Shown: piece by piece, positions 3,902-42,931 of the stretch | Layout of the letters: each line of letters begins with the position of its first letter | Numbering within the stretch: position 1 is the first letter of the stretch | IMG/VR virus record: IMGVR_UViG_3300035210_000151 | Direction: 5' to 3' (one strand) | Origin: a virus | Lineage: Duplodnaviria > Heunggongvirae > Uroviricota > Caudoviricetes | DNA: 64,000 nucleotides | Notes under the pieces: model-generated | What the model saw: the letters and a program-made list of their open reading frames with translations, nothing else | What the model was told of the DNA's origin: nothing | Databases searched by the model: none | Made by a program: the position numbers and the translations under genes

Positions 3902-4147
3902 ATGCAAGAGAATAAAGTAATGGGCACTATTTGCAATGAAAAAGCTGTTCAAGCATTTGTTGCACAGTCCGAACGCGATAACATTCCACTGGTGGTTATC
4001 AATGATGAAATTGATTTCTCAACGGATGTCATTTCCATGATTAAACATCATCAAACACATAACCTTGATTTGATGGTTGTAGTGGCTGAACATGTAGCAC
4101 TGAATAAATCAATGGCTCCTGAACTGTTGAATGTTCGTTGGATCTAA
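3902..4147 (+). CDS. Hypothetical protein
   Basis: AAGGAG RBS before ATG 3902. Confidence 0.65.
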   Translation: MQENKVMGTICNEKAVQAFVAQSERDNIPLVVINDEIDFSTDVISMIKHHQTHNLDLMVVVAEHVALNKSMAPELLNVRWI

Positions 4148-25522: not shown

Positions 25523-26371
25523 ATGCACTATATTAAGTATGTATTAAGCTTTATCTTATTACTGGTATTGGCTGGTTGTAATGATACACCTGATGACGTT
25601 CGGCCAACAGCAGATGCAAAAGTCTATTTTGATCAACAACTGAAAACTACTCTGGCTGCTGCAAAGTCAAAAGAAGACCCTTTTGAAGCTTATCAACTAT
25701 TGTTAAGGGCTTATTATGGTCTAGGTAATGATAAGGAAAAACTACTCTATAAAGATGACACTAGAAAGTTATATATTGCTCAATCTGGATTTGTTGTGAA
25801 CGGCGGTTCAGCACTAGATAATAAACAAGAAGCGATTAATAATATGTATGTTTATTTAGAGTCTGCTTTGAAAAATGGTAATAAAAAAGCTTTTCTAGAA
25901 TTATATGAAGGCGAACAATCAGAACCAGCTAACTTTGGTAATGATATGACAATGAGGCTTAAATCTGATCAATTGCAAACTAAATTCAGCGAAGCTTATA
26001 AAAATTTAGTTGAAACACTTTCAGTAGGTGATCCTATTGATAATGCTCTGATTACAAGCTATGCAAGCCAACTTAAAAATGGTGAGTTCTATCAAAAGAA
26101 TACAGCTAAGTCAGTTGAATACTATCTCAAACTCTACCCAGTTGATAAAGTTGTTCCTTTATACTTGATTGGTGTCTATTTGGATATCAATGATTATGAG
26201 AATGCTTATTTCTGGAAAGTTCGTTGTATTGATGCCTGTGATGCTAGATATAAGAAAATTAGTATTGTTAGTCGAAATCTACCTGACTTATTCAGAAAAC
26301 AGCTAACCAGTGATCAATTTAAAGCTATCGAAGAAGCTTCCAATGATCCAACAAGAACAAGTTTTAAATAA
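25523..26371 (+). CDS. Predicted lipoprotein, helical (Sel1/TPR-like C-terminal part)
   Basis: Lipobox LAGC; KNTAKSVEYY and YENAYFW resemble Sel1 repeats (inference). Confidence 0.65.
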   Translation: MHYIKYVLSFILLLVLAGCNDTPDDVRPTADAKVYFDQQLKTTLAAAKSKEDPFEAYQLLLRAYYGLGNDKEKLLYKDDTRKLYIAQSGFVVNGGSALDNKQEAINNMYVYLESALKNGNKKAFLELYEGEQSEPANFGNDMTMRLKSDQLQTKFSEAYKNLVETLSVGDPIDNALITSYASQLKNGEFYQKNTAKSVEYYLKLYPVDKVVPLYLIGVYLDINDYENAYFWKVRCIDACDARYKKISIVSRNLPDLFRKQLTSDQFKAIEEASNDPTRTSFK

Positions 26372-26384
26372 TCTAACATACCGC

Positions 26385-26413
26385 TTGAATTTTTTTAAGC
26401 GGGCTGCTATAAT
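26385..26413 (+). promoter_or_regulatory. sigma70 promoter of the Ser/Tyr leader
   Basis: TTGAAT-17 nt-TATAAT with TG extended -10; inverted repeat CCGCTTGA/TTAAGCGG overlaps the -35. Confidence 0.75.
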
Positions 26414-26447
26414 GGATACTATTATTTACTTTGTGGAGAAATACAAA

Positions 26448-26498
26448 ATGAAACCTACATTTGCTGTATCCTATTATTATTCATCATATTCTAGTTAA
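26448..26498 (+). CDS. Ser/Tyr-rich attenuator leader peptide MKPTFAVSYYYSSYSS
   Basis: GGAG RBS at 26435; codons TCC TAT TAT TAT TCA TCA TAT TCT AGT then TAA. Confidence 0.8.
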   Translation: MKPTFAVSYYYSSYSS

Positions 26499-26587
26499 CT
26501 GACCAGAGTAGAGGTCAGTTATGGCCTCGAATTCTTGGATAGTAATTATCTTAGACCCTTTGAAGGCCACCTTCAGAGGGTTTTTTT
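26496..26587 (+). promoter_or_regulatory. Ribosome-mediated transcription attenuator (four competing hairpins)
   Basis: A 26496-504:26513-521; B 26511-517:26522-528; antiterminator C 26522-531:26559-569; terminator D 26555-565:26571-581 plus T7. Confidence 0.8.
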
Positions 26588-26627
26588 ATGTCCATAGTGG
26601 CAGGGTTAAGTTCAACCTAAAACAATG

Positions 26628-26677: not shown

Positions 26678-26706
26678 TTGACAAAGACGAAAGAAGTTGA
26701 TAGAAT
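26678..26706 (+). promoter_or_regulatory. Strong sigma70 promoter directly upstream of tRNA array
   Basis: TTGACA-17 nt-TAGAAT with AT-rich UP-element-like region. Confidence 0.85.
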
Positions 26707-26758: not shown

Positions 26759-26846
26759 GGAAGATTGGTCGAGTGGCCGATGGCGTCAGTCTTGAAAACT
26801 GAAGGGTGTAACAGCTCCGTGAGTTCGAATCTCACATCTTCCTCCA
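26759..26846 (+). tRNA. trnS: tRNA-Ser(UGA) copy 1
   Basis: Acceptor GGAAGAT/ATCTTCC, loop CT-TGA-AA, long V arm, TTCGAAT, encoded CCA; unusual U73. Confidence 0.93.
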
Positions 26847-26868
26847 AATTTAGTTTCAAAAGTATCAT

Positions 26869-26952
26869 GGTTAGTTGGCAGAGTGGACGATTGCGGGGGA
26901 CTGTAAATCCCTTCCGAAAGGCACGGTGGTTCGAATCCATCACTAACCACCA
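26869..26952 (+). tRNA. trnY: tRNA-Tyr(GUA) copy 1
   Basis: Acceptor GGTTAGT/ACTAACC, loop CT-GTA-AA, A73, CCA. Confidence 0.93.
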
Positions 26953-26974
26953 AATTAGTTGTAAACTGTTTTAT

Positions 26975-27058
26975 GGGAGTTTCGCATAGTGGCCGATTGC
27001 ACGGGACTGTAAATCCTGCTCGAAAGACTCGGTGGTTCGAATCCATCAACTCCCACCA
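26975..27058 (+). tRNA. trnY: tRNA-Tyr(GUA) copy 2
   Basis: Acceptor GGGAGTT/AACTCCC, loop CT-GTA-AA, A73, CCA. Confidence 0.93.
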
Positions 27059-27086
27059 AATTTAGATGTAATCGTAAGAACAATAT

Positions 27087-27175
27087 GGACGCATTTCCTG
27101 TCATCCGCCTGTAAAGCGGACGCCTTTATAAGACAGGTCGGTTGGCGAGAGGTTCGAATCCTTGTGCGTTCACCA
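27087..27175 (+). ncRNA. Atypical tRNA-Tyr(GUA)-like RNA lacking a D hairpin, potential pseudoknot
   Basis: Acceptor GGACGCA/TGCGTTC, stem TCCGC/GCGGA with CT-GTA-AA loop, T loop TTCGAAT, ACCA end; D region only 10 nt, and its CCTGTC is complementary to GACAGG in a 27-nt variable arm. Confidence 0.75.
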
Positions 27176-27197
27176 AATTAGTTGTAAAACCGTATAT

Positions 27198-27285
27198 GGA
27201 AGCTTGGCCGAGTGGTTTAAGGCAACAGTCTTGAAAACTGTCGGGTGTAATAGCCCCGTGAGTTCGAATCCCACAGCTTCCGCCA
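27198..27285 (+). tRNA. trnS: tRNA-Ser(UGA) copy 2
   Basis: Acceptor GGAAGCT/AGCTTCC, G73, CCA. Confidence 0.93.
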
Positions 27286-27308
27286 GATTAGATACAATGT
27301 TTTATTAT

Positions 27309-27392
27309 GGGTGTTTCGCATAGAGGCCGATTGCGGCTGGCTGTAAACCAGCATCGAAAGACACGGTGGTTCGAATCCATCAACACCCACCA
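27309..27392 (+). tRNA. trnY: tRNA-Tyr(GUA) copy 3
   Basis: Acceptor GGGTGTT/AACACCC, stem GCTGG/CCAGC, A73, CCA. Confidence 0.93.
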
Positions 27393-27405
27393 AATTTATA
27401 TTTAT

Positions 27406-27458
27406 GGAGAGTATGGGGCTGTTGTTATCTCGTAACAATGGTTAACCGCTATCCACCA
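27406..27458 (+). ncRNA. CCA-terminated mini-hairpin RNA, copy 1 (53 nt)
   Basis: GGAGAG...CTATCC-ACCA acceptor-like stem plus 11-bp hairpin; same spacer context as the tRNAs. Confidence 0.65.
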
Positions 27459-27462
27459 ACAT

Positions 27463-27550
27463 GGAAGCGTGGCCGAGTGGTTTAAGGCAACAGTCTTGAA
27501 AACTGTCGGGTGTAACAGCCCCGTGAGTTCGAATCTCACCGCTTCCGCCA
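27463..27550 (+). tRNA. trnS: tRNA-Ser(UGA) copy 3
   Basis: Acceptor GGAAGCG/CGCTTCC, G73, CCA; near-identical to copy 2 with compensatory 7:66 change. Confidence 0.93.
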
Positions 27551-27556
27551 AATTAT

Positions 27557-27607
27557 GGGGAGAAGGGTTGTCTTTTATTTATAGAAGGCGATATCCGCTA
27601 CCCACCA
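27557..27607 (+). ncRNA. CCA-terminated mini-hairpin RNA, copy 2 (51 nt)
   Basis: GGGGAG...CTACCC-ACCA; covaries with copy 1; 9-bp hairpin. Confidence 0.65.
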
Positions 27608-27627
27608 TTTCATCGTCAAAAAACTTC

Positions 27628-27658
27628 AAGAACAACGCAATGTTGTTCTTTTTTTATT
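27628..27658 (+). terminator. Terminator of tRNA array
   Basis: AAGAACAAC-GCAAT-GTTGTTCTT plus T-run. Confidence 0.8.
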
Positions 27659-27732: not shown

Positions 27733-28805
27733 ATGAAAATGAAGTTAAGATATTTTTTAGTGTTATTGTTATCACTTGTCATATCAACAAGTCAAGCAAA
27801 CTCTTTAACAAGTCACATACCTTTTTTTCCGTCTAAAAAAACTATTATTAAAGGTGTTCTGGTAACTGGAACTATTGGAGTGCTTGGCTACTATGTTTAT
27901 TCACAATTATCTAAATTTATTGAAAATACAATAAAAAAAATGATGAGGGAAAAATATCTGACTGGGAAACAGCTAATCTTATAGCTAAAGAAATTGATAA
28001 AATACTCAATAATCCTAAAAAAACAGATCAACAAAAAAGTCAAAGTGTTGTTGAAGCTCAACAATTGTTGCTTTATTATGCCATTGCGTACTATGAACCT
28101 AATGGAAACGATATTTATGATATTGCAATTAGGACCGCAAAAAAAGCAAATATTTATACTGGTGATTTCGATTATGAGTTACAACAAGGCATTAAAATGA
28201 CGACTGAAATTATGCGTAATATGATTTCATTAGCTAATGAAAAAGATATGGAAGATACTAAGTCAAAAAGAAATAAGTGTGATATTAATGATATAGCTGC
28301 TAGAACATATATTTACAATTCATTAAATCCAATTGATCCATTGTACACGGATGTTAATCGACCTATACGTGAATTTGACACTGGAGCTTATAAAAACTTA
28401 AACTTTGTAACCAAAAAATATGCAAAATTGTATAAAATAAAAGATAATTTTGATCATGATCATATTCCGTCTTTTGCTTCATTAAAAACTTATTTAGAAA
28501 ATAGAGATCAATATGTAATAAATTTTGATAATAAATTAAGGAACGTTATTCAACAAAATGGCACTGTAGTTGCAATTAATCAAGCAATGTACGCTGCTGG
28601 GCGAACGTATAAGGGGCGAGCTACATCTACTATGATAAGAGATTCAAAAGATCTTAGAAAAGCAACTATAAAAGATTTTAAGATGCATTATTATTATTAC
28701 AAAAAAAATGGATCAAGTAACCCTAGTTTTGAAACTTTATTTAATAAAGCTTTTATACAAACGTATCAAAGAAATAAAATGATGTGTTTATATGTTAACC
28801 GATAG
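27733..28805 (+). pseudogene. Frameshift-split exported polymorphic-toxin-like gene (signal peptide + TM + DHIPS nuclease-like domain); -1 shift at A8 27933-27940 gives 357 aa
   Basis: Frame 1 ORF 27733-27984 overlaps frame 3, which is open from 27924 to 28805; junction ATA AAA AAA A; DHDHIPSFASLK...RTYKGR resembles HNH-like toxin tips (from memory). Confidence 0.55.
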
Positions 28806-35056: not shown

Positions 35057-35962
35057 TCAGATTTTAATCATTTCTACCAGCACAAAATATTCTTTAAGTT
35101 CATCAATAGTGAGTTCGTTAACATCTGATTTTCTCATTTTTAATGTTTCACAAATAACATTTTTAGCTTCTGCCCTAAATTGATTTTCGAAAAAATCTGT
35201 CAATGATTGACTATCAACATCTATGCTATTCAACTTTCTCAAAAAATCATTTTTCAAGGGGACTTCACTGGCAGCAAAATACATTTTTTTAGGATTATTT
35301 ATTGGAATTATACACATTATTTTATTATGTGCTGAATAGGGGAATTTTATTTTAAAATATGGCTTAATAGTTTCATCAGGCTCTACAAGATGAATTACTT
35401 CGATATTAATATAAGACTTCTTGAAATAATTCTTTTGAGCACCCCGGCCTCGTTGAAGAATATTATTAAAGCTTACTGTTGCAATATTTTTGTCTTTGAA
35501 TTTTAATTGATTGAAATAACCATCATTGTAGAAATGAGTGTTCATGTGTGGGATATATTTTTTCATTTCGACACTGTTAATCAAACCAGACTCAATACCT
35601 TTGTTAATGAAAATATCGACAATATTGAGAGCTTTCTCAAAATCTGGTTTATATTTATCTTGAAGAAAATCAGCTATATTATTAGCTTTTTGACTAAGAA
35701 CAGTTCGCAATGTCGGGCCATAAGACATAACACTTATTTCTGGGTAGTAGTGTAGTTTTTCTTGGCTGCTTTTAGTTTTATTTTCAAAATATATTTGCAT
35801 AGTCCATTGATCATTTTCTGTTGTTGCTTTATAAATTGTAGCTGCAATATCATTATCAGAAAATCTTTGTTGTTCTACATTGTGTTGATTGAATACAAAT
35901 AAAGGTGAAATGGATTTCACAAAATGATTAACAGATGACTTATTGAGTAGTGTTTTAAACAT
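35057..35962 (-). CDS. ~300 aa paralog family member 2
   Basis: Start moved to MFKTLL after GGAG; ends ELKEYFVLVEMIKI. Confidence 0.85.
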   Translation of the reverse strand: MFKTLLNKSSVNHFVKSISPLFVFNQHNVEQQRFSDNDIAATIYKATTENDQWTMQIYFENKTKSSQEKLHYYPEISVMSYGPTLRTVLSQKANNIADFLQDKYKPDFEKALNIVDIFINKGIESGLINSVEMKKYIPHMNTHFYNDGYFNQLKFKDKNIATVSFNNILQRGRGAQKNYFKKSYINIEVIHLVEPDETIKPYFKIKFPYSAHNKIMCIIPINNPKKMYFAASEVPLKNDFLRKLNSIDVDSQSLTDFFENQFRAEAKNVICETLKMRKSDVNELTIDELKEYFVLVEMIKI

Positions 35963-36033
35963 GAAAGACTCCACAATTATGGCTAATTAATGTAGTATTA
36001 TACCATAAAGGACTTGGCTAAGTCCATATTTTG

Positions 36034-36957
36034 TTATATTTTAATCATCTCTACCAGCATAAAATAATCTTTTAATTCATCTGCAGATAAATTATCTAAT
36101 TCAGTTTTCTTAATTTTCAATGTTTTAGAAATTGTTGTTTTTATTTCATTTTCGATTTCACCCTTAAAATATTCAGCTAACTTGTCTTTTTTTAAAGGCA
36201 TTGAAATTATTTTATCAATAGGTGTTATTCTCAACGACTCAGAATCCCCCACCAAATAAAGTATATCACCACCTGCTAGTGGAAGAACATAAGTGTTTTT
36301 ATTCGTTGCTGATGTAGGTAGTTTTATTTGAAAATAGATATTTACTTCATTCATTGAGTCTACTAAATAAACTACATTTATACATATAAACGATTTTTTA
36401 AAATGTGTTCCGTTTTTTCCTGTTCCCTTTTGAAGCACATTATTAAATTTAATACTCGCATAGTTTTTATCCCATAGCTTTATTTGTCCATGATAATGAT
36501 TGATATGCATATGAGAAATCATGTGTTTTTTATATTTTTTCACATCAACACTGTTAAACATGCCAGAATGAAGACCTTGTTCAATAAAAATATCAATAAT
36601 CTCAATAACTCTGTCAAAATCAGGGGTATAAGTTGTTTGTAAAAATTCAGCAATCTCTTTGCTTTTTTGGAATCTCTCAGCAACAGATTCTCCATTGTAA
36701 TGGGTCATCTTAGATTTCAGATCTTTTTCGAATGAAACATAGGGATAAAACTTCTTTCTAATCATGTTGTCTTTTTTTGGACCATAAAATTGTGTTATTA
36801 ATTGCCAGCCTTCGTCAGCTTGTGCTATATATTTTGTAGATTCAGAATCATTAAAACCATCGTAATATTCATCTGTGTATTTTGAGTATTTAAACAACGG
36901 CTCAAATATTTTGAGTATGTTATTGGCCTCTTGATAATTCTTGTATGAGTTAAACAT
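36034..36957 (-). CDS. ~300 aa paralog family member 3
   Basis: MFNSY start; ends ELKDYFMLVEMIKI. Confidence 0.85.
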   Translation of the reverse strand: MFNSYKNYQEANNILKIFEPLFKYSKYTDEYYDGFNDSESTKYIAQADEGWQLITQFYGPKKDNMIRKKFYPYVSFEKDLKSKMTHYNGESVAERFQKSKEIAEFLQTTYTPDFDRVIEIIDIFIEQGLHSGMFNSVDVKKYKKHMISHMHINHYHGQIKLWDKNYASIKFNNVLQKGTGKNGTHFKKSFICINVVYLVDSMNEVNIYFQIKLPTSATNKNTYVLPLAGGDILYLVGDSESLRITPIDKIISMPLKKDKLAEYFKGEIENEIKTTISKTLKIKKTELDNLSADELKDYFMLVEMIKI

Positions 36958-36983
36958 AATATTCTCCAAAACGTTCCATTCAA

Positions 36984-37913
36984 TTAAATCTTCAGCATTT
37001 CAACGAGTACAAAATACTCTTTCAATTCTTCTGGTGTTATTCCATCCATATCTGACTTATTAATTTTCAGTGTTTTAGAAATAGATGTTTTCATTTCTTT
37101 GTAAAACTCTTTATCAAAAAAATCTTTTAACTCTGTTTCGTCCATTGAAATTGAAGGCAATGTATCAATGCATTCTCTTCTCAATTTGTCATCGTTTGCC
37201 ATAAAATAGACAATAGCCTTTCCTGTTAATGGAATCACACAGGTTGCTTTTCGAGACTCTGAATATGGTAATCTTATTTTGAAATAAGGGTGCATTGTGT
37301 TATCAGAGTGAGCTAGATAATCAATAGATACACTAATGTAGGATTTTTTGTAGTGAGTAGTGCCACGATAACCAGAAACCCCTTTCTGCAGGATATTATT
37401 AAAAGTTACTGTACCAAAGTTATTGTCACCAATGGTAATAGTTCCAGAATAATGATTGGTGTTTAAATGAGTTTTCATCACTTTTTTGTATTTTCTCACT
37501 GCAAGGCTTTTAAACAGTCCACATTCAATTCCTTTCTCAACAAAGAGTTTAAGAACAGTAAACATTCTATCAAAATCTGGATTGTAGGTCTTTTGTAAGA
37601 GTTCCACAATTTCTTTGCCTTTAAGTCTTCTGTCTTTGTGTTGATCTTCGTCAAAATTACGAACACGATCTCCCAGTTGTTTAAATTTAATTTCTGGGTA
37701 GTAGGACTTTTGATCACTTTTTGAATTTTTTTTGTTATAAAACTCAATATACAATTCCCAATTATCATCAGTTATTGCCGTATAGGTTGTGACAGAGATG
37801 TTGAAATCCGTATAGGGCTTGAACTCTTCATTAAATTTGACAAAATTGAACACTTTTGAAAACAGAGTGACCAGATGATTGGCTTCTGGGTGGTTCGGAT
37901 AGGTATTAAACAT
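36984..37913 (-). CDS. ~300 aa paralog family member 4
   Basis: MFNTY start; ends ELKEYFVLVEMLKI. Confidence 0.85.
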   Translation of the reverse strand: MFNTYPNHPEANHLVTLFSKVFNFVKFNEEFKPYTDFNISVTTYTAITDDNWELYIEFYNKKNSKSDQKSYYPEIKFKQLGDRVRNFDEDQHKDRRLKGKEIVELLQKTYNPDFDRMFTVLKLFVEKGIECGLFKSLAVRKYKKVMKTHLNTNHYSGTITIGDNNFGTVTFNNILQKGVSGYRGTTHYKKSYISVSIDYLAHSDNTMHPYFKIRLPYSESRKATCVIPLTGKAIVYFMANDDKLRRECIDTLPSISMDETELKDFFDKEFYKEMKTSISKTLKINKSDMDGITPEELKEYFVLVEMLKI

Positions 37914-38028
37914 AATATACTCCAAAAATATTTAATAATTGTATCATAAATAAATATTGATTGCTATTTTTTTTGCAATAAAAAAAGACCTTTCTTAAGG
38001 TCTTTTATCGGACTTCATGAAAAGTCAG

Positions 38029-38970
38029 TTAAAACTTTACCATTTCTATTAGAATGAAATGGCTTTTCAATTCATCATCGGTCATTTTAACTAATTCAGT
38101 TCTTTTTATTTTCAGGGTTTTAGAAATGACATTTATTATTTCTTTTTTAAAGTTATCTCTAAAGAATAATTCTAAATAAGCATTGTCAGTTGGGTGTTCT
38201 TTAAGGTTGTCAATATAGTCTTCTTTCAAATGACTGTCTTCACTGACAAAATACATTTTTGAACAATCAAAAGAAAGAATGCAGTGTATTTTTTTGTGTG
38301 ATGAATAGGGTAATTTAATTTTGAAGTATGGGTTAATTTTATTATCTTTACTAATGAGATACAAGAAATCTATACTTAAATGAGATTTTTTAAATTTCGT
38401 TTCATTTGCTCTTAATGTTTGCAGCACATTATTAAAAGTTATTTTTGCAGCGACTCTGCTGTTAAAAAACAACCTATTGTAACCATTGTAGGTGTTTTCA
38501 TACCTGTAAAATTGCGTGCTAACATCTCCATTATGTGGAATTACTTTCACACTATTATAGATACCTGTGTTAATACCTTGTTGAAGATAGATTTCAATTA
38601 TCTCCATCGCTCTTTTAAAGTCAGGTTTATATATTTTTTGAAAGTGCTCCATTATTTTTTCTGCTTGTAGCTTATTAGCGATTTCTTCATCAGGTGTTGC
38701 TGGTCTTTTAACACCTTTGTAATCAGAATGGTCTTGTTTTCTATTTTTTTCAAATTCTACAACAGGGTAATAGTATTTCGAATCAAGACCTTTGGCTTTA
38801 TCTGTTTCAAACGTTGCTGTAATACTCCAATTATCATCAGTAGTTGCCACATAGGCTATTGAGTCATACCACTTATGTTTAGTTTCATCGAAGTCTACAA
38901 TATTTAATACAGGTTTAAATAATTTAACCAATTGATTGATTTCTTCATGATTATGGTGTTTTTCAAACAA
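38029..38970 (-). CDS. ~300 aa paralog family member 5
   Basis: TTG start after GGAG (MFEKH); ends ELKSHFILIEMVKF. Confidence 0.8.
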   Translation of the reverse strand: MFEKHHNHEEINQLVKLFKPVLNIVDFDETKHKWYDSIAYVATTDDNWSITATFETDKAKGLDSKYYYPVVEFEKNRKQDHSDYKGVKRPATPDEEIANKLQAEKIMEHFQKIYKPDFKRAMEIIEIYLQQGINTGIYNSVKVIPHNGDVSTQFYRYENTYNGYNRLFFNSRVAAKITFNNVLQTLRANETKFKKSHLSIDFLYLISKDNKINPYFKIKLPYSSHKKIHCILSFDCSKMYFVSEDSHLKEDYIDNLKEHPTDNAYLELFFRDNFKKEIINVISKTLKIKRTELVKMTDDELKSHFILIEMVKF

Positions 38971-39054
38971 GGGATTCTCCAAATTATTAATATAAATATC
39001 ATAACATTAAAAACAACAAATACCATTGTATACGGATAATTTGATAGACTATTT

Positions 39055-39960
39055 TTACAACTCCATCATCTCAACCAGAGTAAAATAGTCTTTTAATTCC
39101 TCGCTGGTCAATCCGTCTAACTCTTTTTCAGTAATTTTAAGGGTTTTAGAAATAATGTATACCATTTCATCTTTAAATTGATTTTTAAAAAATGATTTTA
39201 GAGAAGCAGGATCGGATGAGAACTTCATTACCTGATTAAAATAACCTTCTTTAAAAACGTTGTCTGCGTTGGTAAAATAAATCGTTGATTCGCCAGACAA
39301 TGGAATGACACACGTCACTTTACGTTCAGTAGAATAAGGAATTCTAAGGACAAAATATGGTTTCATTTTATTATCGTCACTGACTATATGCATAATTTTT
39401 ACACTAATAGTTGCCTTTTTAAAAGCCGAGCTGTTTTTTCCTGAACCCTTTTTAAGAACATTGTTAAATGTTATATTTGCGATATTTTTTTCACAAAATC
39501 TCAAGTTTTTATAATAATCATCCACAATAAAGTGAGAACTCATACTTGGAGTGTATTTTTTCATCTCAACAGAGTGAAATAAACCCGATTTAACACCTTC
39601 GTCTATAAACAGTTGAATGACAGTTTTCACTTTCTCAAAATCAGGTTTATATACTTTTTCAAATTGTTCAACAATTTTTTTACATGTATTCTTTTTTTCA
39701 AACGTCATATAATTGTTTTTCAATTTTTTAAAGGTTATTTCTGGGCAAAAATGTTTGTGATTTTGATTCGCTAAGAATCTGTTATGGAAAGAAACAATTA
39801 GACTCCAATCATCACTATTTGTGGCTTCATATACTGACTCACCGATATCAGTTTGATACTTTTTCTTGTTATCTTCTTTAAAACTAGAAAACACAAATAA
39901 TGGTGACAATTTTTCAACAAGATCGTTTACTTCTGTATAGTTGGGCATTTCTGAAAACAT
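39055..39960 (-). CDS. ~300 aa paralog family member 6
   Basis: MFSEM start; ends ELKDYFTLVEMMEL. Confidence 0.85.
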   Translation of the reverse strand: MFSEMPNYTEVNDLVEKLSPLFVFSSFKEDNKKKYQTDIGESVYEATNSDDWSLIVSFHNRFLANQNHKHFCPEITFKKLKNNYMTFEKKNTCKKIVEQFEKVYKPDFEKVKTVIQLFIDEGVKSGLFHSVEMKKYTPSMSSHFIVDDYYKNLRFCEKNIANITFNNVLKKGSGKNSSAFKKATISVKIMHIVSDDNKMKPYFVLRIPYSTERKVTCVIPLSGESTIYFTNADNVFKEGYFNQVMKFSSDPASLKSFFKNQFKDEMVYIISKTLKITEKELDGLTSEELKDYFTLVEMMEL

Positions 39961-39993
39961 AATAATCTCCGGTGGTGAATTATTTCAATAATT

Positions 39994-40902
39994 TTAAATC
40001 TTAACCATTTCGACAAGAATAAAGTACTCTTTCAATTCATCATTTGATAAACCAGTTAATTCAGACTTCTTAATTTTTAATGCACCCACAATCACGTTCT
40101 TGACTTCATTTTGTAGTTCTTTTTCAAAGAAGTCTGATAATGATTTGTCATCCATTGAAACTTTTTCATTCAGGTTGTCCACATATTTTTCTTTTAACAC
40201 GTTATCTGTTTCGGCTATATACATTTTAGAGCTTCTGCTCAATGGAATGATACAAGTCACTTTCTTTGTTGCTGAATAAGGTAGTCGGATTTTAAAGTAA
40301 GGCTTTAATTCATTATCTGAGCTGACCAAATAAATGATTTCTATATTGATGTAAGCTTTCGTGAATGAACGACCTAAAGAACAATTATTTTTTTGAAGCA
40401 CTTTATTTAACATGACAGTCGCATAGTTAGTGCCATTAAATGATATCTTCTGATAATACTTGTGCATACCAAAGTAGTTACTGAGATGTTGCGTTTCATC
40501 TTTTAATTTCACATGATTAAACATACCAATATCAATACCTTTTTTTACAAAAATATCAATAAGGTTACGAACTTGATCAAAATCAGGGGCATAGTTATTT
40601 TGAAATAGTTCAGTGAGTTCAGCCACCTTGTCTAGTTTTATGGCAGTCAGATAATCTGATACAGTGCGTTCAAACCTAATTTCAGGATAATAATGTTTTT
40701 GATCGTGTTTGCTTCGAAAACGGTTATTGAATGATACAACCAGTTTCCAATTATCATCAGTGCTGGCACTGTAAATAGTGGAGCCAATATCTCGCTCATA
40801 GCTTTTATGATTCTCTTCATGAAAGGTTGTGAAATTAAATACTGATGAAACCTGTTCTACCAGTTTATTAACATCCTCACAATTCTTATATTTTTCAAAC
40901 AT
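39994..40902 (-). CDS. ~300 aa paralog family member 7
   Basis: MFEKY start; ends ELKEYFILVEMVKI. Confidence 0.85.
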   Translation of the reverse strand: MFEKYKNCEDVNKLVEQVSSVFNFTTFHEENHKSYERDIGSTIYSASTDDNWKLVVSFNNRFRSKHDQKHYYPEIRFERTVSDYLTAIKLDKVAELTELFQNNYAPDFDQVRNLIDIFVKKGIDIGMFNHVKLKDETQHLSNYFGMHKYYQKISFNGTNYATVMLNKVLQKNNCSLGRSFTKAYINIEIIYLVSSDNELKPYFKIRLPYSATKKVTCIIPLSRSSKMYIAETDNVLKEKYVDNLNEKVSMDDKSLSDFFEKELQNEVKNVIVGALKIKKSELTGLSNDELKEYFILVEMVKI

Positions 40903-40942
40903 AATTGGCTCCAAATAATTACCTAATTATAGCATACTTTCA

Positions 40943-41857
40943 TTAATATTGCACCATATCAATCAGTGTATAATATTGTTTTAATTCATCCATTGATAAA
41001 ACTCCTACTTCCTTTTTATCTAAATTAAGCTTTTTAGCAATGCTAATTCTCATTTCATTTTGAAAACACACTTTTAAGTAATCTTTAAAATCTTTTTCAT
41101 TATTAGAGATAGCTGTTAATGTATCAATGTATTTATTTTTCCACAATGCATCTTTTTCAAAAAGATAAAGTTCATTTTTATTTTCAAAAGACATCAAACA
41201 AGTCAGTTTCTTATCTGCATTGTAAGGCAGCGTTATTTTGAAATAAGGATGAAGCGTTTCATCAGAATGGACTAAATACACAATTTCCATTTTCAATAGG
41301 GATTTTTTGTAATGAGAATTTTGATATCCCTGCCCTTGCTGAAGAACTTTGTTGTGAATAATCATCATGACTTTTTTCTCAATAAAGCTTAATGTGCCGT
41401 GACGGTGACTATCAATAGTTAGATGACTAGTCATTTGAGGTGAATAGCATAACTCTTCGTTATTTATGATAAGACACGATTCAATACCTTGTTCGACAAA
41501 CCATTTGATAATTGTCATAGGAAGACTAAAATCAGGGTTATACTTTTCGTGTATTCTTTCACTCAGGGATTCTGCAAAATCGTAAAGTGCATAATTTCTG
41601 ACGTTATTAAAATCTTTGTTAGTAACTGATATCTCTGCTTTATATTGTTTTTTAGCAGTCTTTTCTTTTGTGTTGCTTCGAAAGCGAATCAGAAAATTCC
41701 AGTCATTATCAATCGTGGTTGCTTTATAATCAGTACATCCAATGTCACGATTCATATTGAATCCATTTTCGACATTAAGACTTTTAAATTGATAAAAGTC
41801 TTTAAATTGTTCTAAAAAGTGATAAGCTTCTTTGCTATTGGGATATTTTTCAAACAT
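40943..41857 (-). CDS. ~300 aa paralog family member 8
   Basis: MFEKY start; ends ELKQYYTLIDMVQY. Confidence 0.85.
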   Translation of the reverse strand: MFEKYPNSKEAYHFLEQFKDFYQFKSLNVENGFNMNRDIGCTDYKATTIDNDWNFLIRFRSNTKEKTAKKQYKAEISVTNKDFNNVRNYALYDFAESLSERIHEKYNPDFSLPMTIIKWFVEQGIESCLIINNEELCYSPQMTSHLTIDSHRHGTLSFIEKKVMMIIHNKVLQQGQGYQNSHYKKSLLKMEIVYLVHSDETLHPYFKITLPYNADKKLTCLMSFENKNELYLFEKDALWKNKYIDTLTAISNNEKDFKDYLKVCFQNEMRISIAKKLNLDKKEVGVLSMDELKQYYTLIDMVQY

Positions 41858-41893
41858 AGATAACTCCAAATAATTATTGATTACGATAAAAGT

Positions 41894-42811
41894 TTAAATG
41901 TTTACCATTTCAACAAGCACAAAATATTCTTTCAATTCATTAATGGTTAAGTCTTTCAAATCTGTTTTACTAATTTTCAAGCGAGTAGAAATTGTATTTT
42001 TGATTTGCCTCTCAAAGAGTTGTGTGAACAGGTCTTTGAGCTTACATTCAGTCAATGCTTCTGGTGTTTGTTGGTCAACGTGGTATTTATCCAAATGACC
42101 ATCATCCAAAAAGAAATACACTTTATCTCCCAACATAGAGAGAACACAACTGATTTTCTTATTTTCAAAATACGGCAACCGAAGTTTAAAATAAGGGTGC
42201 ATTGTATTATCAGAATGCACCAAGTAGATAAAATCTACATTGATGTAAGATTTCTTAAAATGTTTTGACTGGATACCTTCGCCTTTTTGAAGGACATTAT
42301 TAAAATATACATCGGCCACGTTTTGATCTGTAATATGAATTTTATTGTCATAATAATGAGCTAAAATATGTGATTCCATACTTTTTTTGTAGTATTTTTT
42401 ATCCACTACGTTAATAACGCCTGCTTGGGTGCCTACATCAATGAACCAATCCATAATTTCAGTAATTCTATCAAAATTAGGCGTATACATTGTTTCTAAC
42501 ATGCGAACAATCGTTTGAGCGTCATTTCTAATTTTATCAGAGTTGAACACTTGAACTTCATTGTCAACAAAAACGAGTTTGGCGATCTTATGTTTCCGTT
42601 GTGTTTGATTTTTATGTGTTTCGAGTGGGTTCATGAAGATGACTTCAAGATCCCTTTGACCTGCTTGTGAAGTGGCTTCATACACAGTTTTAAAGACATA
42701 ACCATGCCTGTCAGCGTAGTTTGCTTCTTTGAAATTACTGAATTTAAAATCATTTTCGAACGACTCCAAAAGAGCATTAACTTCAAGATGATTGGGATAG
42801 ATTTCAAACAT
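41894..42811 (-). CDS. ~300 aa paralog family member 9
   Basis: MFEIY start; ends ELKEYFVLVEMVNI. Confidence 0.85.
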   Translation of the reverse strand: MFEIYPNHLEVNALLESFENDFKFSNFKEANYADRHGYVFKTVYEATSQAGQRDLEVIFMNPLETHKNQTQRKHKIAKLVFVDNEVQVFNSDKIRNDAQTIVRMLETMYTPNFDRITEIMDWFIDVGTQAGVINVVDKKYYKKSMESHILAHYYDNKIHITDQNVADVYFNNVLQKGEGIQSKHFKKSYINVDFIYLVHSDNTMHPYFKLRLPYFENKKISCVLSMLGDKVYFFLDDGHLDKYHVDQQTPEALTECKLKDLFTQLFERQIKNTISTRLKISKTDLKDLTINELKEYFVLVEMVNI

Positions 42812-42931
42812 AGCATTCTCCACAAATATTTGTCATATTATACCATAAAACATTAAAAATTACTATTTAAACAGACAAAAAAACCTCCGAAGAGGCTTTT
42901 TATTTATTTCTTAACTGTTCCTATGAGAGCA

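Follow-up and report, generated by a model that had tools for sequence, protein, structure and literature searches.

Sequence comparison indicates that two short elements embedded in a tRNA array, mini1 (27406..27458, +, 53 nt) and mini2 (27557..27607, +, 51 nt), are real, conserved, structured small-RNA genes with tRNA-like ends, because relatives keep their folds through compensatory mutations. The array belongs to the stretch of DNA analysed here, 64 kb in all and hereafter called the window. Both elements were delimited from the sequence, from folding and from covariation in relatives, and when the sequence was re-read, the coordinates and strand proposed by an earlier, sequence-only reading turned out to be exact for both. 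As that reading had it, an AT precedes each element, the first two bases are GG and the last six CC-A-CCA; the two have the motifs GGRGAGNANGG and CCGCTAYCCACCA in common. All nine genes of the array, seven of tRNA type plus mini1 and mini2, are preceded by AU and have G as their first base. The combined mini motif pattern occurs at only two sites in the 64-kb window, those of mini1 and mini2, and was found in none of 100 shuffles. Relatives, designated below by L numbers, were sought via the matches of neighbouring proteins in metagenome assemblies. Many of the contigs found end inside the repeated array; those spanning it are L010, L021, L032, L033, L034, L071, L072, L075 and L076.

MFE folds of both elements consist of an acceptor-like stem, an internal loop and a distal hairpin, with a folding energy of −16.3 kcal/mol for each and z-scores of −1.9 to −3.0. 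In mini1, the acceptor-like stem pairs 27406-27412 with 27448-27454 and contains a purine.purine mismatch (27409/27451); GG at 27415-16 pairs with CC at 27446-47 as a clamp, the distal stem pairs 27417-27428 with 27432-27443, and the 3′ end is made of A73 (27455) and CCA (27456-58). The corresponding parts of mini2, all on the + strand as in mini1, are an acceptor-like stem of 27557-27562 with 27598-27603 (mismatch 27560/27600), a clamp of GG 27565-66 with CC 27595-96, a distal stem of 27568-27577 with 27582-27591, and a 3′ end with A73 at 27604 and CCA at 27605-07. The third acceptor pair is A-U in mini1 and G-C in mini2, a compensatory difference, as first reported. At position 4, the G.A mismatch described as conserved is found in both elements of the window; across relatives it is not strictly G.A, being always purine.purine (G.A, A.A or A.G), and its persistence could come simply from only transitions having occurred there. 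The distal hairpins do pair, and are slightly longer (12 bp in mini1, 10-11 bp in mini2) than the 11 and 9 bp initially counted. T loop and anticodon arm are indeed lacking: GTTCRANYC is absent, and a single hairpin stands between the acceptor strands. The acceptor end, that is G1-C, G2-C, A73 and an encoded CCA, is present in nine of the 10 distinct copies recovered from the window and related metagenome contigs; in the other, mini2 of L037/L038, UCA replaces CCA. A generic scan of the window for G...NCCA-closed hairpins recovered mini1 plus four matches inside coding regions, and missed mini2 because of its two mismatches, so that such a scan is neither sensitive nor specific.

The region 26759-27607 (+) is one tRNA operon, holding three tRNA-Ser, three tRNA-Tyr, an aberrant Tyr-like RNA, mini1 and mini2. 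A promoter-like sequence, P2 (TTGACA-17-TAGAAT, 26678..26706, +), was found by promoter scan directly before the array, and an intrinsic terminator (27628..27657, +), detected by terminator scan, closes the operon. On the + strand, ARAGORN and Rfam call tRNA-Ser(UGA) copy 1 (26759..26846), tRNA-Tyr(GUA) copies 1 and 2 (26869..26952 and 26975..27058), tRNA-Ser(UGA) copy 2 (27198..27285) and tRNA-Tyr(GUA) copy 3 (27309..27392). The third tRNA-Ser(UGA), at 27463..27550 (+) and referred to below as tRNA-Ser 3 or Ser3, lies between mini1, with a 4-nt gap, and mini2, with a 6-nt gap. The discriminator base is U73 in Ser1 of the window, and G73 in Ser2 and Ser3. Some tRNA-Ser of relatives have the anticodon AGA instead of UGA (the first array tRNA of L021, and L072:2380-2467), and L021 carries an additional tRNA-Ser(GCU). 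ORFs of the window use Tyr at 5.4% of codons (TAT at 40.7 per thousand) and Ser at 7.0%, and end with TAA in 53 cases, TGA in 9 and TAG in 4; a codon-supply role for the array fits their high Tyr demand.

The aberrant tRNA-Tyr-like RNA (27087..27175, +) was read from the sequence and from folding, and is not called by tRNA finders. Acceptor stem, T arm, A-CCA end and anticodon loop (CUGUAAA, for Tyr) look normal. What is unusual is the D region, just 8-9 nt long, in which CCUGUC can pair with GACAGG in a variable region of 27 nt. Counterparts were found in relatives (L010, about 3959-4048; L071:288-376), and three different anticodon-stem sequences, all paired, are seen among them. Divergence is strong in the tRNA-Tyr copies as well as in the aberrant RNA, and changes in the anticodon stems are compensated.

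Several identities were considered for the minis and rejected. They are not tRNAs: no cloverleaf can be recognised, and ARAGORN and Rfam, which recognise the six tRNAs around them, miss both elements, as had been predicted for tRNA finders. Rfam gave no match for either mini at the gathering threshold, nor at E ≤ 10. They are not acceptor-TΨC minihelices, having no T-loop motif and possessing an internal loop, a distal stem of 10-12 bp and loops of 3-4 nt. Armless decoding tRNAs were rejected for want of a constant loop: nearly identical relatives show CUC, GUC or GUU as the mini1 triplet, and in mini2 the loop is 4 nt long. Intrinsic terminators were found by scan at 26553-26583 and 27628-27650 only, and the minis precede ACCA and then a tRNA or spacer. 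A coding role was dismissed as well, since the ATG...TAA of mini1 (10 codons) is altered non-conservatively by the compensatory changes and the ORF is absent from mini2. No K-turn or T-loop motif was seen on inspection of the mini alignments. Finally, descent from tRNA-Ser 3 was not retained, the resemblance of the ends being short and not significant.

Homology between the two elements was assessed with covariance models. Model R1, built on mini1, detects mini2 over its full length (E = 1.5e-4), and model R2, built on mini2, detects mini1, also over its full length (E = 5.7e-7); nothing else is detected in the 64 kb by either model. Judging from these reciprocal matches, mini1 and mini2 are paralogues. 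In the MAFFT alignment of mini1 (5 variants), 18 of 18 pairs are kept everywhere, 3 of them with double changes, and two pairs show G.U to A-U changes. The MAFFT alignment of mini2 (4 variants) gives a like picture, with 17 of 17 pairs kept and double changes in 4. For the joint set, MAFFT on both paralogues together misplaced the 5′ end, and alignment A5 was used (10 distinct sequences): 170 of 170 pair cells are paired and 9 of the 17 pairs show double changes, in an alignment fitted to the model and thus biased towards structure, a caveat of which the two separate MAFFT alignments are free. As controls on A5, none of 500 shuffles was as good, and sliding the partner by 1-3 columns reduced pairing to 37-66%. 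A tRNA pseudogene was rejected on this basis, since neutral decay should break pairs as often as it spares them, and all 170 cells are kept at 15-21% divergence.

The covariation has to be read as a small number of independent events, because the homologues all belong to a single lineage of close relatives. The lineage is shallow: between the window and L010, the protein of a neighbouring phosphatase gene is 96% identical, so that conservation alone proves little. In the phosphatase gene, 16% of third-codon positions differ between the two. Identity to L010 is 85% for mini1 and 79% for mini2, and 98-99% for the leader and promoter regions described below. The minis thus diverge nearly neutrally, yet every stem change preserves pairing, which argues for selection on the fold and not on the sequence. 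The sequence-only reading had named in advance what would make the elements tRNA deletion remnants, the want of homologues with covarying stems; homologues were found and their stems covary. We consider it very unlikely, for the same reason, that the minis are decaying remnants, that is functionless products of internal deletions in tRNA genes. Truncated tRNA-linked repeats do occur in bacterial tRNA operons, the mini ends weakly resemble those of tRNA-Ser 3, both minis were lost in some lineages, and the UCA of L037/L038 could be taken as decay. Decay would however not produce stem substitutions that are all compensatory or pair-preserving despite near-neutral divergence, nor the same architecture in two paralogues with unrelated distal sequences.

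The distribution of the elements among relatives was then established from the contigs. Mini1 is present in the window, L010, L021, L032, L033/34 and L075/76 (six distinct sequences), and absent from L071 and from the more divergent L072-74; in L071, a recombination between Ser2 and Ser3 removed Tyr3 and mini1. Besides the window, L010 and L036-38 alone were seen to carry mini2 among the relatives examined, so that most relatives lack it. Where it is missing in L021, L032-35 and L075/76, tRNA-Ser 3 abuts the ribosome-binding site of a PDDEXK_5 gene. The two arrangements differ cleanly by the spacer and mini2, gained or lost together. Mini1 and mini2 are dispensable cassettes, and neither is essential, because each is absent from several relatives.

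Outside this set, the searches returned little. No IMG/VR viral contig matched the mini-RNA pattern, the aberrant-Tyr pattern or the upstream protein. In GTDB genomes the aberrant-Tyr pattern was not found, and the phosphatase had distant relatives only. In phage, plasmid and E. coli collections, matches were limited to the tRNAs themselves or to generic phosphatases. A pattern scan of metagenomes gave 19 matches, one of them genuine (L021), the other 18 being chance matches in GC-rich contigs without the array.

In most relatives, the last RNA gene and the terminator are separated by a PDDEXK_5 gene (PF11645, I-Ssp6803I-like; L010:4497-4895; also L021, L032-L038 and L071-L076). Its product matches PDB 2OST (E = 2e-4), and in L010 and L021 the terminator that follows it is the same as the one found at 27628 in the window. 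The window lacks this gene; a stretch of about 20 nt, 27608-27627, may be left over from its 3′ end. Its position parallels that of segB in the T4 tRNA cluster and of the heg genes in the T5 cluster. This neighbourhood raises the question of whether the minis act as DNA, their inverted repeats serving as a recombination site or as the target of a homing endonuclease linked to PDDEXK_5. The PF11645 gene does follow mini2 or tRNA-Ser 3 in most relatives, and cassette gain and loss falls exactly at this place. But the stems use G.U pairs throughout, which pair only as RNA of the + strand, the G1/A73-CCA frame is an RNA-processing signature, and mini1 is not adjacent to the endonuclease gene. We therefore hold an action at the DNA level to be extremely unlikely.

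Upstream of the array, the region 26385-26590 (+) looks like a putative classical attenuator tuned to Ser and Tyr, the amino acids of the downstream tRNAs. A promoter-like sequence, P1 (TTGAAT-17-TATAAT, TG-extended, 26385..26413, +), conserved in relatives, stands before a leader ORF of 16 codons, MKPTFAVSYYYSSYSS* (26448..26498, +), which has a Shine-Dalgarno sequence and ends with ...SYYYSSYSS, that is 4 Tyr and 5 Ser in its last 9 codons. A hairpin and then a strong terminator lie downstream, the latter being an intrinsic terminator (26553..26590, +) found by terminator scan and folding. An alternative anti-terminator pairing was also found by folding (26521-26569, +): when the S/Y codons were masked, in a fold mimicking a stalled ribosome, this pairing sequestered the left arm of the terminator. 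The leader arrangement is conserved in L010, L021, L034 and the divergent L072. In diverged relatives the leader peptide is still rich in Ser and Tyr (...SSSYYYSYSR in L021, ...SYYYSYYSH in L072), and the terminator is kept. A match to the Rfam His_leader family in this region was below threshold (32 bits, E = 0.005). We know of no leader-peptide attenuator of this type before tRNA genes, and a literature search found no described leader-peptide attenuator preceding tRNA genes. If the attenuator is real, it would couple the supply of tRNA-Ser and tRNA-Tyr to ribosome stalling on Ser and Tyr codons. Further upstream, a lipoprotein-like gene (25523-26371, +), with a signal peptide followed by Cys, encodes a product 41% identical to that of L010:2337-3236; by comparison with the 96% identity of the phosphatase, it would be either fast-evolving or paralogue-swapped.

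A scheme for the production of the minis can be proposed. They would be transcribed within the Ser/Tyr tRNA operon, as paralogous small-RNA genes, and excised by the tRNA-processing machinery, with RNase P probably cleaving between U-1 and G+1 and the 3′ end being trimmed back to the encoded CCA. For mini1, the RNase P cut of tRNA-Ser 3 would leave 4 nt to trim. Bacterial RNase P prefers U-1, G+1:C72 and a 3′ RCCA, and the ends of the minis fit these preferences, U-1, G+1:C72 and RCCA all being present. The predicted product is a rod of 51-53 nt with about 20 bp, made of three parts: an acceptor end (G1-C72, G2-C71, covarying pair 3, the 4:69 mismatch, two further pairs, A73 and CCA), a small internal loop with its GG/CC clamp, and a hairpin of 10-12 bp whose sequence is free.

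Such hairpins might instead serve the precursor only, in cis, with no further role for the pieces once excised. Possible services are additional sites of entry for RNase P, shielding of 3′ ends, or the prevention of mispairing among the near-identical tRNA-Ser copies. In favour of such helpers, both minis sit very close to tRNA-Ser 3, 4 and 6 nt away where other spacers measure about 22-28 nt, and the fold is conserved while the distal sequence varies. Against them, a Ser3-type tRNA without minis adjoins an ordinary spacer or the next gene (L071, L032, L034), and a spacer hairpin would need neither the G1...A73-CCA geometry nor a conserved internal loop. A role confined to the precursor thus seems unlikely to us.

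Another use of a released acceptor end would be aminoacylation, the charged minis either feeding a non-ribosomal tRNA-dependent enzyme or buffering a synthetase or EF-Tu. Synthetic acceptor minihelices can be charged by several synthetases. A73 and G1-C72 of the minis are common to all Tyr-type genes of the array and resemble those of bacterial tRNA-Tyr, and the 3′ strand of the minis, ACCGCU[A]UCC, resembles ACCGCUUCC of Ser3. This last resemblance is however short and not significant, the minis have no T arm and carry a mismatch at 4:69, and no tRNA-dependent transferase was seen nearby. Bacterial TyrRS also requires the anticodon, and SerRS a long variable arm. Charging is in our opinion quite improbable.

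We rather favour an action in trans. The minis cannot decode. The acceptor end and the internal loop clamped by GG/CC are conserved, and would be the parts read by a protein, the hairpin being a handle of free sequence. Through their acceptor end, the minis might tie up, or draw off, a protein by which tRNA 3′ ends are bound or attacked. Taken as a whole, this chain of events, in which the minis are RNase P-processed, trans-acting mimics of acceptor ends, is plausible from the sequence features, with somewhat more doubt than confidence on our side. As to what the mimics do, a putative decoy or competitor for a protein binding or attacking tRNA 3′ ends is the likeliest use, one that we put forward tentatively and with considerable reserve. 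No candidate for the target protein, such as one of the CCA-end-attacking toxins first proposed, was identified in the sequence or the neighbourhood.

The context of the operon fits a contest over tRNA. Its Tyr RNAs are diverging, and the window encodes domains of RNA-repair type (HAD_SAK_2 and an RNA-ligase PHROG). There is also a precedent, oversupply of tRNA-Tyr being a documented phage escape from a retron tRNA-Tyr nuclease (PMC11555353). The minis could then be part of a tRNA-centred counter-defence, together with the redundant, diverged copies of tRNA-Tyr and tRNA-Ser and the aberrant Tyr-like RNA. A still more specific proposal, that they are dedicated decoys or antidotes against proteins, of the host or of rival elements, modifying or cutting tRNA acceptor ends, and that operon output is raised by stalling on Ser and Tyr codons, appears rather doubtful at this stage.

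The replicon itself is unusual. The window has 32% G+C and tandem paralogue families; 14 Pfam families were found among its 66 ORFs, about four fifths of the ORFs being without match. Syntenic arrays were found on contigs of 1.84, 1.86, 1.28, 0.52 and 0.39 Mb, from independent assemblies (L021 and L032-L034 included). These contigs have a low G+C content, mostly ORFan genes and no GTDB counterpart. To our knowledge, a size of 1.84-1.86 Mb is far above that of any described phage. In being very large, rich in tRNA and low in GC, the replicon resembles the pMEGA megaplasmids of Enterobacteriaceae, which are low-GC, measure up to 1.58 Mb and have 100-208 tRNAs, grouped in blocks and set 6-25 nt apart (bioRxiv 10.1101/2025.09.30.679422). 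It may be a megaplasmid-like giant extrachromosomal element, or a phage of unprecedented size; because of the size and of the resemblance to pMEGA, the word phage is best read here as giant mobile element.

Some neighbouring genes deserve mention. Downstream of the array, the gene at 27733-28805 (+) is split into an ORF of 83 aa with a signal peptide and an ORF of 246 aa in another frame. Its counterpart in L010/L011 is a single ORF of 361 aa, and the split is one of three things, a frameshift, a pseudogene or an assembly error. On the − strand, eight tandem ORFs of 301-317 aa occupy 35057-42823; their size and tandem order suggest a paralogue family. One of the eight (35057-35974), scanned singly, gave no Pfam or PHROG match. 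Further runs of ORFs of 230-290 aa are found elsewhere in the window.

For about 50 years, phage tRNA clusters have been known to contain stable RNAs other than tRNAs (RNA C/D of T4, RNA I-IV of T5). Like these, the minis occupy non-tRNA slots and have tRNA-like ends. Among the stable RNAs of the T4 and T5 tRNA clusters, RNA I of T5 and RNA D of T4 come closest to them in kind, and the kind itself is not new. The T5 record lists eight stable RNAs 'with unknown functions' among the tRNAs, along with HNH endonuclease genes. RNA I (107 nt) and RNA 3 (73 nt) of T5 are non-tRNA genes in tRNA slots of a cluster holding homing-endonuclease genes, as with the minis, and the predicted fold of RNA I has a 5-bp GGCUC/GAGCC closing stem followed by G-CCA, with no T arm, which is also mini-like. 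The T5 RNAs differ in being two to three times as long as the minis, and share no sequence with them, the cluster having been compared by eye only. RNA I was seen as a stable RNA, whereas the stability of the minis is a prediction.

In T4, the species 1 and 2 RNAs (rnaC and rnaD) stand at the cluster end, after tRNA-Arg and with a gap of a few bases, which recalls the minis; the cluster holds the homing endonuclease segB, and rnaD ends with ...CACCA, like the A-CCA of the minis. They are longer (119-139 nt), and rnaC retains a T arm. Model R1 found no match in the T4 tRNA cluster. The function of rnaC and rnaD is still unknown (PMC9697503).

Other RNAs share single features with the minis. E. 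coli has tRNA-linked repeats and an rtT RNA at tyrT, CCA-bearing pieces located downstream of tRNA-Tyr and released by processing. They are similar to the minis in this respect, but the tyrT repeats are direct repeats of the tRNA-Tyr 3′ end, whereas the minis have both stem halves and no Rfam match. A weakened acceptor stem combined with a 5′ GG is known to make an RNA a substrate for tandem CCA-tagging. Synthetic minihelices and microhelices, made of an acceptor stem, the discriminator and CCA, are recognised by RNase P, the CCA-adding enzyme and some synthetases. The acceptor-TΨC minihelix is a coaxial stack of 12 bp with a T loop, in contrast to the minis, with their 4:69 mismatch, internal loop and about 20 bp, and no T loop. 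The armless mitochondrial tRNAs of nematodes (about 42-45 nt) are also mini-like, with an acceptor stem, short connectors and a single hairpin; they keep however a 5-bp anticodon stem and a fixed anticodon, where mini1 has a variable loop and mini2 a loop of 4 nt. The minis can finally be likened to mascRNA and the MEN-beta tRNA-like RNA, small non-decoding RNAs with a CCA end, which tRNA-processing enzymes excise out of longer transcripts. The latter are eukaryotic cloverleaves with a T arm, to which CCA is added, while the CCA of the minis is encoded.

Among the stable non-tRNA RNAs of phage tRNA clusters, the minis are the smallest examples that we can point to, and the cleanest in structure. 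Their simple architecture, their natural covariation and the natural knock-outs that exist among close relatives make the question of what such RNAs do tractable. Standard annotation misses them, so further examples may be hidden in the tRNA arrays carried by large phages and megaplasmids. If the minis are acceptor-end mimics, they would add a layer of RNA decoys to the contest between mobile element and host over tRNA. And if they are decoys made from an operon controlled by ribosome stalling, the whole would form a self-regulating, tRNA-centred counter-defence module, with the first natural acceptor-end mimic used in this way.
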